From assembly GCA_964016885.1 (NCBI GenBank), contig OZ024762.1, positions 24,986,001-25,050,000 on the forward strand: a stretch of 64,000 nucleotides of DNA, in the 5' to 3' direction. Below are positions 1,750 to 63,148 of this stretch, piece by piece. Origin of the DNA: Eledone cirrhosa. Lineage: Eukaryota. The number at the start of each line of letters is the position of its first letter. The first letter of the stretch is position 1. The notes below the pieces were generated by a model. The model saw only the letters and a program-made list of their open reading frames with translations. It was not told the DNA's origin and made no database searches. The position numbers and the translations under genes are program-made.

Positions 1750-2200
1750 GCAAAAGTTCTATTTAAATTGTTGGGATACAACAAGCAAATATTTTTATAA
1801 CTGATACAAAGCACTCGACAAGTATTTGGAGTAAATATACGATATTAACAAATGGAAACTATATTTATAAAACCATATCTATTTTATTATACATATTTCA
1901 AGGATACCATGTTAAATGATGGTATGCTTTCATCAGATAAAACACAATATATACCAGTTTTATAAATAAATATTGACATACCCTTTCAAAATGCAACCGT
2001 TACTTTTTGAAGACATCTGATGTCTTCCAAAAGTAACTGTTGCATTTTGAAAGGGTATGTCAATATTTATTTATAAAACTGGTATATATTGTGTTTTATC
2101 TGATGAAAGCATACCATCATTTAACATGGTATCCTTGAAATATGTATAATAAAATAGATATGGTTTTATAAATATAGTTTCCATTTGTTAATATCGTATA
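1750..2200. mobile_element. Hammerhead-bearing fold-back element, family D (Penelope pLTR-like)
   Basis: Near-perfect palindrome 1836-2200 centred at 2018, plus a unique left tail 1750-1835. Flanked by (TA)n. Second copy at 34758-35142. Confidence 0.8.
2094..2154 (+). ncRNA. Type I hammerhead ribozyme (minimal stem III); mirror copy on - strand at 1882-1942
   Basis: UUUUAU-CUGAUGA-[aagcAUACCAU..AUGGUAUccuu]-GAAA-UAUGUA-UA^AUAAAA. Confidence 0.8.
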
Positions 2201-2935
2201 TATATATATATATATATATATATATATATATATATATATATATATATATATATATATATATATATATATATATATATGTATATATATGTATGTATATAGA
2301 CGTATATATATATCTATCTCACGCTCATGTAATATGTATATATATATATATATGTATATATATATATATATATATATATATATATATATATGAAGAACCA
2401 GCGTCCGAAACGTGTTTTCAACATAGTCACTGGAAAGAAGCAATGCAGATATTTAATACGAAGAGTTGAAATTAATGCATGCAATATTTCACAGCTCTAG
2501 CATGTCCAATTTATAATCAGCCTCCGAACCTTTCAACTCACTCTCGTAAATGCAGAGTATTTGGAAGAAAAGAGACAATACTGTTTTGTTATCATCCCTC
2601 TTGTAATAGGAGCCTTAGGAATAGTGTCAAGAAGGTTAAATGGCTGAATGGATCTGTTGGATATAGAGGTGAGTTTCGTGACTCTACAGAATACATATTT
2701 GTTTTGTAGGCAGAACAAAGAACTTTAAGAAAGAGCTAGATTGATAAGGATGAAGAAATACAGCTTCGTTGGTATCTAGTTATCAAATAACGTCGAAAAA
2801 ACAATTACAAAATGCAGAGAGAAAAATGCTGAACAACAACCACCACCACCATCACCACCACCACCACCACCACCACCACCACCACCACCACAACGACCAC
2901 CACCACAACAACAACAAGACCAACACCAACAGTAA

Positions 2936-3572
2936 CGGTTTCTGATTGAGGCACCAAGCTAACAATTTTAGGGGAAAGGGAAAGTTGATTAAACGACCCC
3001 AGTACATTACTGGTACTTTATTTTATCGACCCCGTAAGCATGAAAGGTAAAGAAAACCTCGTTCGTGATTTGAATTCAGAATGTAAAGGGGCGTAACTCT
3101 CTGCTGCAAAGCATGGTGTCTGACCCTCTACCAATACTACCAATCCACCGCCCTTAATAATGGTTTCTTATATAGGCACAAGGCCAGTAATTTAGGGGGA
3201 GGGGAAAGTCGATTAAATCGACTCCAGTGCGTGACTGGTACTTTATTTTATCGACCCCGTAAGGATGAAAGGCAAAGTTAACCTCGGCGGGATTTGAGCT
3301 CAGATCATAAAGGGCCGTAACTCTATGCTGCAAAACATGGCGTCCGACCCTCTACCGATACTGCCAATCCACCGCTCTAATAATAATAACACTTGTTTCT
3401 ATTCTTGGCACAAGCCCCGCAATTACCCCAGTGCATTACTGGTACTTTATATTTTTTGAACCCGTAAGAATAAAAGGCAAAGTTAACATCGGCGGGATTT
3501 GGACTCCGACCGTAACACTATGCTGCAAAGCATGGCGTCCGACCTTCTACCGATTCTGCCAACCCACCGCCC
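2936..3572 (-). mobile_element. Three tandem tRNA-derived SINE copies
   Basis: On the minus strand: ggcggtggattggcagtatcggtagagggtcggacgcc (A-box-like), gagttcaaatc (B-box-like), conserved core ctttcatccttacggggtcgataaa, 3' end ...ttgtgcc..gaaac(att)n. Confidence 0.85.
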
Positions 3573-3654
3573 GAATGATATTGATGATAATAATAATAAT
3601 AATAATAATAATAATAATAATAATAATAATAATAATAATAATAATAATAATAAG

Positions 3655-59096: not shown

Positions 59097-61317
59097 ATAT
59101 ATATATATATATATATATATATTATAGAACGTAAATTTCATAAATTGATGATGAAGGAGTGAATCCAGAACTGTGAAATATTGCATGTATTAATTTCAAC
59201 TCTTCTTATCAACAACTGCATTATTTCTTTTCAGGGTCTATTTTGATAAATAAACAATAAACATCTTTTGGTCATTCCACGAGAGTATCATAGTCAGTCT
59301 ATAAAGGGGTGCTGCTTGATCTGTGAAATCTTGCAAGCATTAATTTCAGCTCTAATTTCAACTCTTCTTATTAATAAATGCATTGTTTCTTTCCAGGGAC
59401 TAATTTGGAACATAACCTCTGTTGGTCATTCCATGCGAGTATCTTAGTCAACCAATGAACTTTTCTGCCTATGAACCTCTCAGTGACCCTCGTATACATA
59501 TATAACTCAACTGAATCAGGTGAATATCTGCTTAAATTCCGATTTAACTTGATACTGAGACCATATAAATCTCCCTTTCTTTACTGTATTGACTTTTTCC
59601 AACTACGTATTATTTACATACGCAACTGACATAGTGAATAGTAAATATTCGACATGACGGCTACCGTACCACCATGCAAGTGTATATATATATATTTGTG
59701 TGTGTGTATATATATATATATATATATATATATATATATATATATATATATATATATGCGTGTGTGTGTATATATATATATATATATATTTGTGTGTGTA
59801 TATGTATATATATGCAGATATATATGCGTGTGTGTGTATTTGGGTGCGTGTGTGTATGTATATATGTATTTGTGTTTGGTTGTATACCTATATTCATATT
59901 TATATATATACATATACTTAAATCTCTCTCTCTCTCTGTAAATATGTATATATATATATATATATATATATATATATATATATATATATATATATATATA
60001 TATATATATATATATATATATATATATATACATAATATATATATATATATATATATATATATATATATATATATATATATATATATATATATATATATAT
60101 ATATATATACATATATATTTTTATATATATATATATATATATGTATATATACCTATCTATCTATCTATCTCCTCTCTCTCTCTCTCTCTCTCTCTCTCTC
60201 TATATATATATATATATATATATATATATATATATGTATATATACATATGCCTACATATCTTCTATCTGTATGTGTATGGTTCTTATATTTATAAAATGC
60301 CAAGCAAGAGGAAACCACATAACGGCGTTAGAATACAAGACATCTCAATGGCCACCATATCGTTTTGCATATAATGAAAGCAAACCAGCAAACCACCAGC
60401 CGAAGATTAGAATGAAATATTGGTTAACGCCGGCCATAAATAACAATCTTTAGCGTATGGCTTGGCAAAATTATCAGACAGAAGACTGATACGAACGCAA
60501 CATCTCATATTTTCAAGAAATGCAGTTGCGTAAGATCACGTATGAATCACTGCGCAAGACCCTGCTTATAAATTTCTTGTCATAACTGAGCAAGCGATAT
60601 TTTACGACAATCGATGTAGTTGCAAGTTCTCGCAAGCACCGACAGACAGTCCAAAGTTCAAGCCTGATTAATGTATTTCTATGTCAGAAAGCAAGGTTCT
60701 ATAGCAGCGATGAACAATTAATTTAAACCGAAATCTTCCATATTTCTTGAATTGCGTATAATATTTAATAAATTTAAATTCGTCGTCTGCTTTATAAAGT
60801 CACTACAATCACCACCACTACCATCCGACGAATTAGGAGAATCGTCAGATTGCTTGCTTCGCAGCAGTCATTCAGTTTCTCTGAGTTCAAATCGCGTTCT
60901 CGCCGTGGTCAATTTTACCTTTCATCTATTCAAAATAAAAAAAAATAAAAAAATGTTCCAGTCAACTACTTGGTCGATTCTTCCTTTATATCTTTCTCTC
61001 AATTTCTATCATTCACTGGAGGAAATCTGTTGTGTTCAGACCTGAGAAATGATGGGCTCTGTCAAGCATAAACAATGCCCAAAACACCGTATGCTAATAC
61101 GGTGCTTCTACAATTTACTCAGCACTTACGGGTCCATGCCATACCATACCCTACCATGCGCCATTTTTTTCTTTCCGTCACTCTATGCCCTCTGAGTTCA
61201 AATTCCACCGAAGTCAACTTAGCATTTCATCCTTTCAAAGTTGATAAATGTACTAGTCCAGTGCTGAGTCGATTCTTCCTCTATATCTCTTTCTCACTTC
61301 TTCCTTCCCCTTCAAAT

Positions 61318-62233
61318 TGGCATTTGAGCCCAAGTTCAACGTAACAAATGTTTAATGACTGGCAAAGCTGGAGAGCAATTACAGGAAGATTCAGCTTCTA
61401 TTTTTAAAAACTGGGGTTAATACATAGATACCAACTTGTTGCCATGTGAATTGAGCTTCAGTTCAGCTTAACAAATGTTTAATGACTGGAAAAGTTCAAG
61501 GGCAATTAAAGGAACATTTAGCTGCTATTTTAAACTAATCAGGTGATCAAGTTGAGATCATGAGTTACCAAGGCATTTGAGTCCAAGTTTAGCGTAACAA
61601 ATGTTTACTGACTAGCAAAGTTGGAAGGCCTTTAGAGGAACATTTAGCCGCTAATTTTACCAAAGTGACGACGTTAAAACCAAGTTTGTGCAATGATAAT
61701 TGCGCTTCAGTTCAGCGAAACAATTGTTTACTGGCTTGCAAAGCTGCAGGGCAATTAGAGGAACATTTAGCTGCTATTTTTAGCAAATGGAGTAACCATG
61801 TAAAAACCAACTTGTAGCCATGGCAATTCAGTTTCAGTTCAGCGTAACAAATGTATACTCACTGGCAAAGCTGCAGAGCAATGAGAGGAACATTTGGCTG
61901 CTATTTTTAGCAAATGGAGTAACCACGTAAAGACCAAATTTGTGCCCTGTTATTTGCTTTTCAGTTTAGCGAAACGAATGTTTACTGACTGGCAAAGCTG
62001 CAGGGCAATTAGAGGAACATTTAACTACTATTTTTAGCAAACGGTGTAACCACGTAAAGGCCAACTTTGTGCCATGGCATTGCGCTTCAGTTCAGGTAAA
62101 CGAATATTTATTGACTGGCAAATCTGCAGGGCAATTAGAAGAACATTTAGCTGCTATTTTTGACAAATAGGGTGACCACGTAAAGACCAACTTGTTGCCA
62201 TGGCAATTGAGGTTCAGTTCAGCGTAACAAATG
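61318..62233. repeat. Tandem repeat, ~126 bp unit, about 7 diverged copies
   Basis: Recurring cagttcagcgtaacaaatgtttactgactggcaaagctgcagggcaattagaggaacatttagctgctattttt. Confidence 0.9.
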
Positions 62234-62999
62234 TAAAAAGATAGACCACGTTTCACAACGGTGATCATCAGTCGTCTAGTGGGTTTATTTTCGTTTTTTT
62301 TCTTCCGTATATTTCTTTTATATTTTTGTCATCAAGCAGCATGGCTTGTTTTCCCCTTTTACTACTGTGTTTGGATTTTCCCCCGCCCACTCTCTCTGTG
62401 TATATTTATATATATATATGTCTCTTTCTTTCTTTCTCTCTCTCATACACTATCTCTCTCTTTCTCTCACTCTCTCTCTCTCACCACATATCTCTCTTTC
62501 TCTCTCACTATATATATATATATATATATATATATATATATATATATATATATATATATATATATATATATATATATACTTGTTTCGCTCGATCACTATT
62601 TGTATTATTATCATTATTATTGTGTTTACTATTATTATTATTATTATTATTATTATTATTATTCAATTTGCGTTAATCAATTGTTCTACAGAGTGAATGA
62701 TTATTTGATTGATTTATCTACTTGATATATTGATATATTGATATATTGATTAGTCATTTAAACCTCGTTCGTGTTGATAGGACAACACAGGCGACATATC
62801 TAGAAAGACGGATGTTTTCACAGCTTACTGAAGACGAGAAAAATACAACACTGAAGTCTTCTCGAAAAGACAAAAATAAACGAATAAGTAAAGAAATAAA
62901 ATAAAATATAAAAATATAAAAGTATAATAGAAAATATTTAAAGAAAAAAATGTTAAGAATTTTACCTTCTAGGAGAAATATTTCTATATAACCAGGAAA

Positions 63000-63148
63000 G
63001 ATTTTGCCTGAAGATTTCGTACGAATAAAAGAGTTCTAGTCCTGTAGAAGACATTTCTATAATGAAATTAATATACCTCTACTCTACTAATGTATTGAGT
63101 ATCTTTTTTTAAGCAGTGGTCACCTCCCGATGTGCATCGGGGTTCCCT
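63000..63148 (+). mobile_element. Degenerate family C copy (decayed hammerhead and tail)
   Basis: cctgaagatttcgtacgaataaaagagttctagtcctgtagaa, then tactctactaatgtattgagta. Confidence 0.6.

Follow-up and report, generated by a model that had tools for sequence, protein, structure and literature searches.

The reverse transcriptases (RTs) of Penelope-like elements (PLEs) are the sister group of telomerase, and one PLE lineage, the Hydra clade, is marked by RW and DKT motifs, a CxCx5C linker, a C-terminal GIY-YIG domain and a type I hammerhead ribozyme in the pseudo-long terminal repeat (pLTR) (PMC8557442). In PAc, an element of the Poseidon clade, reverse transcription started in vitro internally at two sites that bound the tail (PMC11167929), and circular RNAs have been proposed for such elements (PMC4209133). 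The origin of the PLE tail and of the inverted pLTRs was open, the in vitro work on PAc having given two starts without the signal. We analysed a stretch of 64,000 nucleotides from Eledone cirrhosa (contig OZ024762.1, positions 24,986,001 to 25,050,000 of the forward strand; hereafter the window), in which a preliminary description had noticed a bulged stem-loop downstream of hammerhead ribozymes, together with copies elsewhere in the same genome and relatives from outside samples.

This hairpin is a real, clade-wide and duplicated cis element of Hydra-clade PLEs, and it marks both ends of their insertions. Full-length elements hold it twice, M1 after the hammerhead and M2 55–106 nt beyond M1, ahead of the open reading frame (ORF). 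Judging from the sequences, we estimate a probability of roughly 0.65 that the hairpin acts in the element RNA as a docking site that determines the start point of reverse transcription, and that twin priming at the two sites gives rise to fold-backs.

Twin hairpins at the ends of inserted copies

Outside relatives were retrieved via an alignment of 79 homologous proteins and comprised 78 metagenome loci and 23 contigs in bacterial genomes. We considered the 38 junctions, from metagenomes and metagenome-assembled genomes (MAGs), in which an ORF start was preceded by no less than 150 nt of sequence (L464 was excluded). Two hairpins were found in 26 of these, one in six and none in six, against a background of the hairpin finder of one match on the antisense strand of the junctions and 33 matches in 185 kb of ORF interiors. 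The spacing of M1 and M2 was 67–106 nt in the seven families of the Eledone genome and 55–83 nt in 32 other junctions, with M2 before the start codon. M2 was canonical in families A, B, D and H; that of F and G carried an insert of 60–75 nt at the apex, and that of C consisted of the outer helix only. All M2 hairpins lay outside the window, which contains no full-length junction. The Hydra-clade contigs L442–L464 are filed in bacterial MAG or symbiont genomes and are probably host animal DNA; no relatives were found in viral contigs. Short tandem arrays built from the junction were also observed (among L532, L542 and L543), namely five 183-nt units of family F with M1 and M2 and without ribozyme, and retrozyme-like units of ~190–210 nt with ribozyme in family C.

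The preliminary description had raised the possible absence of the motif from young copies and family consensuses. The hairpin is present in near-identical young copies of every family, in intact outside elements and in published consensuses. By eye, it was recognised in the coral and sea-cucumber consensuses Hydra-2_Amil, Hydra-2_Ajap and Hydra-1_Ajap, the last of which starts 2 nt ahead of it, and as a variant in Hydra-1_Crog; it was not seen by eye in the excerpted Hydra-1_Amil and Hydra-1_Obim consensuses, which stop ~35–50 nt past the ribozyme cut (PMC8557442).

The 3' ends of inserted copies were mapped onto real full-length junctions, and copies fetched without a tail-containing query are referred to as unbiased. 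Among the unbiased 3' ends abutting a microsatellite, 235 of 243 were located within 14 nt 5' of M1 (112) or M2 (123). The corresponding number for all microsatellite-abutting 3' ends was 511 of 524 (229 at M1 and 282 at M2), with median offsets of −5 from M1 and −3 from M2; these offsets are maximal extents and the exact ends are blurred by a few nucleotides, since element and target share TA. In the outside samples, all 13 TA-abutting ends lay beside M1 or M2 (seven and six, respectively). The other 13 of the 26 outside rows did not abut TA and comprised three long ends, four microsatellite artefacts, three hairpin-only cross-family matches and three ends elsewhere. End positions tracked the hairpin across families despite their differing M1–M2 spacing, and the hairpin adjoining an end was never included in the copy ending there. 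Short ends fall just ahead of M1 and long ends just ahead of M2, which makes the one-sided tail the M1–M2 interval. The dinucleotide TA was present at −9 to −5 in 56 of 63 hairpins, compared to 25 of 63 at −14 to −10. The preliminary description had read the stem-loop as a cis-acting signal, and the position of M2 just beyond the long end, which places a hairpin beside both element ends, lends support to this reading on the evidence of sequence. Some copies started at M1, with their 5' junction at the hairpin (L447:3885, L475 and L317), and tail-only inserts from M1 to the long end occurred, as if copying from M2 had halted at M1.

The hairpins could instead control translation, packaging or transcription, one example being an operator-like site close to the start codon, with the ends being nearby only through annealing of AU-rich RNA to (TA)n. 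The location of M2 shortly ahead of the ORF start and the enrichment of TA just upstream of the hairpins would agree with such a role. However, the junctions contain many other TA, yet only 8 of 243 ends fell elsewhere, and the ends follow the hairpin through the changes in spacing; we regard this explanation as quite improbable.

The inverted pairs, or fold-backs, were strongly ordered. A short end was combined with a long end in 165 of 168 pairs, and in 59 of 60 pairs of the unbiased set; three of the 168 had two long ends and none had two short ends. Arm lengths were analysed for families A, B and G only, with references that were not themselves fold-backs, and 114 of 126 inverted pairs in these families were tiled exactly by both arms. 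The short-ended arm reached further upstream in 35 of the 114 pairs, the long-ended arm in 18, and both reached equally far in 61, while the overlap at the fold-back apex was mostly 0–4 nt. Since either arm may reach further and the apex overlap is short, the pairs fit two priming events with independent truncation and agree poorly with a snap-back from one cDNA as the sole route. Self-priming, in which M2 alone primes, the cDNA folds back and the second strand stops at M1, has been proposed for head-to-head Penelope inversions (PMC3846280). It would account for the strict pairing of short with long ends, and the 61 of 114 near-symmetric pairs agree with it. On the other hand, a snap-back arm cannot exceed its template, yet the short-ended arm was the longer in 35 of the 53 asymmetric pairs (up to ~1.3 kb), and M1 and M2 are alike both in sequence and in their offset to the ends. 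This makes self-priming very improbable in our view, compared to initiation at a hairpin beside each end.

Carrier elements, window sites and specificity

The preliminary description had assigned the hairpin to five unrelated families. By ORF marks and RT tree, the families instead belong to one clade, all of them being Hydra-clade PLEs; this assignment follows from the Hydra marks in the linked ORFs and from the grouping of the RT cores, which are 35–57% identical among the hairpin families and cluster together on the tree. Families B, C, D, F, G (window 57.8–58.5 kb) and H (locus L282) are linked to Hydra-type ORFs, and a full copy of family A (L031) has a single ORF with RT and C-terminal GIY-YIG. 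The endonuclease was found upstream of the family B and G ribozymes, and in B, C, D, F, G and H the RT follows the tail. The DKG to DKT change was seen as SDKT in A, B, C, D, F and G and as SDKA in the single H copy, and the N-terminal motif was RWT, RWR or RWK in families A–H, a GxKF-type match being found only in the two non-Hydra controls. The CxCx5C linker was present in A, B, G and H and mutated in the C copy, and none was recovered for D or F; CCHH was not seen in the endonuclease in an alignment judged by eye. Hammerhead cores were predicted in A, C, D, F and G, and the families insert into (TA)n, as is typical of the Hydra clade. Elements of this clade are mostly shorter than 3 kb; many metagenome contigs with whole ORFs measure 2.3–3 kb, and the family A copy measures ~3.8 kb with a long 3' untranslated region (UTR). 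A Pfam scan of ten proteins named none of the seven PLE fragments among them.

Two families deserve separate mention. Of the 29 long copies of family B, 27 had the non-canonical hammerhead core CUGAGAA and none the canonical one (L335–L363; window 45627–45770 and 47557–47700); a pattern search found the canonical core in truncated or chimeric stubs only. In most stubs of family B the fold-back lies inside stem II, yet the family is abundant and keeps both hairpins. Family Z consists of diverged repeats with the hairpin ~60–70 nt ahead of the (TA)n end and no clear hammerhead directly upstream, with at least 40 matches in the genome (L224:2964–3008, L290:2050, L313:6005 and 6581, L047, L042).

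All ten sites of the preliminary description have the form RCUC-[inner stem-loop]-UN-GAGY on the strand given there. The ranges given there were mostly one flanking base too wide on each side, and exact spans are given below with the other features of the window.

1813..1832, minus strand: hairpin M1, family D, on the tail side of fold-back 1750–2196
1888..1936, minus strand: type I hammerhead core to predicted cut, family D
1750..2196: family D inverted pair within (TA)n, with the long end on the left and the short end on the right
13613..13637, plus strand: hairpin M1, family-A-like copy (also found by the covariance model)
13904..13928, minus strand: hairpin M1, family A
13846..14286: family A inverted pair, with the long end on the left and the short end on the right
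15627..15647, minus strand: hairpin M1, family F
15691..15736, minus strand: hammerhead core to predicted cut, family F
16365..16389, plus strand: hairpin M1, family A, in a truncated copy that lacks the ribozyme
18382..20163, plus strand: broken Hydra-clade RT-endonuclease ORF remnant, 50–72% identical to the family A ORF
28755..28809, plus strand: hammerhead core to predicted cut, family A
28860..28884, plus strand: hairpin M1, family A
28531..28943: family A inverted pair, with the short end on the left and the long end on the right
34810..34829, minus strand: hairpin M1, family D
34750..35141: family D inverted pair
45628..45651, minus strand: hairpin M1, family B, with only the 3' half of the ribozyme retained
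45833..45871, plus strand: hammerhead core to predicted cut, family C
45894..45912, plus strand: hairpin M1, family C
47558..47581, minus strand: hairpin M1, family B
47510..47700: family B inverted stub, with the long end on the left and the short end on the right
57455..57475, plus strand: degenerate hairpin M1, family-F-like copy (also found by the covariance model)
57837..58208, plus strand: Hydra-type GIY-YIG domain, family G, directly upstream of its own ribozyme and hairpin
58399..58428, plus strand: hammerhead core to predicted cut, family G
58471..58490, plus strand: hairpin M1, family G, variant with a 1-nt bulge; the long end lies at ~58531
63081..63100, plus strand: hairpin M1, in a subfamily of family C whose ribozyme core is mutated

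The reported distance of 20–55 nt from the ribozyme was borne out as 22–55 nt from the predicted cut at the sites where a cut can be placed (55 nt at the family D site 1813), but a full hammerhead core lies upstream of only six of the ten sites: the core is mutated at 63081, the family B pair (45628 and 47558) keeps the 3' half only, and 16365 has none. The constant 2-nt bulge was likewise kept in the ten sites but is 1 nt in family G (58471–58490). Three window hairpins come in addition to those reported, at 13613–13637, 57455–57475 and 58471–58490, all on the plus strand. A covariance model, whose training set included related copies of these window families, recovered all ten sites as well as 13601–13643 and 57448–57481 (E < 0.15).

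A strict pattern matched the window exactly ten times, compared to a mean of 0.34 and a maximum of 3 in 100 dinucleotide shuffles. This pattern was defined post hoc, and enrichment was therefore also tested elsewhere in the genome. A set of 72 stretches of 10 kb beyond the window (720 kb, nine of the stretches being near it) held 54 matches with a 2-nt bulge, versus 4.4 in shuffled sequence (maximum 7, ten shuffles), while matches with a 1-nt bulge were at background level (7 versus 5.8). The same-genome matches were mostly within recognisable repeat families, ~60–90 nt ahead of a (TA)n run.

In non-Hydra 3' regions, the hairpin was found in none of 24 family X copies and none of 27 Neptune-like copies (30 fetched of each, both families labelled by motif inspection only), a control that is limited by the many copies without a tail. 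In 30 non-Hydra loci, the model gave 11 matches with E < 0.2, of which eight were nested Hydra copies, two were unassigned and one was a poor match; none of the 11, on inspection, lay at a non-Hydra element end. Family X (window 14620–15519, minus strand; L546–L549, L553) carries an insert rich in asparagine in its ORF and, ~200 nt ahead of its ends, a degenerate hammerhead; its two ends are ~55–60 nt apart and without the Hydra hairpin. A broken Neptune-like PLE occupies window 39700–42500 (minus strand), and the ribozyme core of its family is altered and without CUGA in the copies examined. Another element with inverted ends lies at window 58680–58960, with a hammerhead-like core at 58850–58880 and no hairpin seen downstream. 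Broken ORFs of non-LTR retrotransposons with RVT_1 matches, unrelated to the hairpin, are present at window 8775–11494 (plus strand) and 23075–26865 (minus strand).

A search of Rfam with eight loci containing full junctions gave two weak matches, neither of them on the hairpin; for the window, the 150 listed of 343 matches were all below threshold and were nearly all microRNA models on microsatellites. A reading as a selenocysteine insertion sequence was dropped, the core sequence of that element being different. The hairpin is not part of the hammerhead, as it lies outside stem I. No published description of it was found in the excerpts consulted, subscription papers, Repbase/Dfam notes and bioRxiv supplements being outside the scope of the search, and the hairpin and its duplication are unmentioned in the excerpted text and supplement of PMC8557442. 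The hairpin and its duplication thus appear to be new and undescribed, while elements of this class, their tails and inverted copies, and initiation at internal sites were known already.

Pairing, covariation and folding

In the consensus, GCUC-Y..R-UH-GAGC-ACU is preceded by an AU-rich lead in which UA stands at about −9 to −5. Pairing was counted in 75 non-redundant hairpins of the outside samples, obtained with a finder without a pairing term. The first inner pair was Watson-Crick in 70 of 75 hairpins versus 37.2 in shuffles (C-G 46, U-A 23), the second in 54 versus 21.9, and the third in 41 versus 17.9. The bulge was UU in 45, UC in 15, UA in 13 and UG in 2 of them, and ACU came next in 60. 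Since shuffles ignore relatedness, M1 hairpins were placed on an RT tree of 52 elements, where two-sided changes occurred at least eight times at the first inner pair, at least four times at outer pair 1 and at least once at outer pair 3. In a model-fitted alignment, outer pair 1 was G-C in 89, A-U in 10, U-A in 4 and other in 4 cases, and outer pairs 2–4 were nearly invariant; for this alignment, 10 of 71 listed rows had been removed (mis-parsed, N-containing, very long or poorly matching) and 21 added, the latter being own-genome copies and outer-helix variants. Compensatory change is therefore present in a larger alignment, as the preliminary description had proposed to check. Its statement that both helices co-vary applies strongly to the first inner pair, also to outer pair 1 and rarely to pair 3, but outer pairs 2 and 4 are essentially invariant.

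Families differ in the sequence around the hairpin but keep the motif itself. An origin by chance, or as a neutral leftover of common ancestry, might be considered given that the motif is short and weakly folding and that all clade-assigned carriers belong to one clade. Against this stand the enrichment over shuffles, the duplication in 26 of 38 junctions, the eight or more two-sided changes on the tree, and the survival of the motif within differing surroundings, and we consider such an origin hardly credible. The apical loop ranges from a few nucleotides to ~75 nt, and such a variable apex fits a single-stranded fold better than a duplex site. The apex and the one-sided bulge also excluded a palindromic site in duplex DNA.

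A candidate docking site and its relation to known systems

How the hairpin might direct insertion can be outlined as follows. The element protein would bind the RNA hairpin, and the nicked (TA)n target would anneal to UA ~5–8 nt upstream of it and prime copying; with priming upstream of the hairpin, the hairpin itself would be left uncopied. Two protein subunits, at M1 and M2, would prime on opposite target strands, and the two independently truncated cDNAs would join via 0–4 nt of microhomology into a fold-back. Copies with a long end that contain the ORF would need a template holding M2 behind the 3' UTR, and hence a tandem or circular RNA. The PAc system offers a precedent in that RNA 3' of the start sites is required, both target strands are extended and a dimer is predicted (PMC11167929).

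Several points weigh against docking of the protein on an RNA hairpin. Two of five whole-structure measures were within the range of shuffles: the number of pairs changed on both sides was matched in 208 of 500 shuffles and the number of further pair types in 385 of 500, and the alignment behind all five measures was fitted to the model. The 52 hairpins on the tree were hand-picked, well-formed M1, and the outer helix, being mostly invariant, provides little evidence of covariation. Predicted folding is weak, with z > −2 in 12 of 14 folds and several sequences adopting other folds; given this weak thermodynamic folding, the hairpin would probably need protein to form. Inner pairs contained nine G-U versus four A-C, by which RNA and sense single-stranded DNA (ssDNA) are not distinguishable. 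Family C makes long ends though its M2 is minimal and lacks the inner helix. The exact end positions are blurred by a few nucleotides of TA common to element and target. Both cDNAs span the same upstream RNA, so that strand displacement or two RNAs would be required. Finally, PAc, as judged by eye, is without the hairpin sequence, so that its precedent covers the architecture and not the motif.

The positional and covariation data fit equally well with cutting of DNA, in which the GIY-YIG domain would cut a sense ssDNA intermediate at TA a few bases 5' of the hairpin, with resolution at M1 and M2. Craig et al. attributed the tail to resolution by the endonuclease (PMC8557442), recognition by the Penelope endonuclease depended on the tail (cited in PMC11167929), and the bacterial GIY-YIG enzyme SsnA binds an ssDNA hairpin in a strand-specific, loop-tolerant manner and cleaves upstream of it (PMC11893778). 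The PAc tail boundaries, however, were mapped as RT starts on RNA in vitro (PMC11167929). Cutting would also require an intermediate that extends past M2 on both arms, and the absence of short–short pairs (0 of 168) would need a separate reason. We hold ssDNA cutting, the main rival reading, to be unlikely and continue to favour the setting of RT starts by the hairpin in RNA.

With the hairpin duplicated at a fixed distance from both ends, the question of the tail and pLTRs becomes directly testable. The hairpin rules also define the boundaries of Hydra elements for curation and predict which short non-coding derivatives can be mobilised. PLE RTs being sister to telomerase, the hairpin bears on how RNA structure defines a template. 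If docking is true, the tail and the inverted pLTR would be explained together, and a telomerase-related RT would have a template-defining RNA element, which could provide a portable tag for inserting any upstream RNA. Whether this is the first defined cis-acting docking element of a PLE RT, a ruler hairpin of ~25 nt duplicated so that a dimer primes both (TA)n strands, is a narrower claim that we advance tentatively, at slightly less than even odds.

Hairpins near a priming site that are recognised by the element's or virus's own RT protein occur in the 3' stem-loops of long and short interspersed nuclear elements (LINEs and SINEs), in the R2 3' UTR and in hepadnaviral epsilon. In these systems the hairpin is found at the copied 3' end or within it, or serves as template for the primer, whereas the Hydra hairpin lies 3' of the start, is excluded from its own copy and is present twice. 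Twin priming of LINE-1 likewise yields inverted, head-to-head copies whose arms are truncated independently and meet at a microhomology junction, but its second priming site is opportunistic, while both Hydra sites are fixed beside hairpins.

Published Hydra-clade elements and the present ones are alike in their (TA)n target, inverted truncated copy and one-sided tail, the tail being 55–106 nt here compared to 30–40 nt in the excerpted description (PMC8557442). As proposed for the present elements, PAc has two internal starts bounding the tail and a need for 3' RNA; its target is AT-rich, and ribozyme cleavage was dispensable (PMC11167929). The Hydra motif differs from PAc in being non-coding, duplicated and of another sequence; by eye, no such sequence was found in the excerpted PAc template (PMC11167929). 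A different bulged hairpin can be drawn by eye in that template directly 3' of the +111–118 start, within the minimal RNA ending at +172 (PMC11167929). The Ssn/NTS nucleases share with the present system a GIY-YIG domain, a strand-specific hairpin with a free loop and an event a few nucleotides upstream of it; they are bacterial, stand-alone and act on ssDNA only, and the likeness considered here is one of behaviour (PMC11893778).

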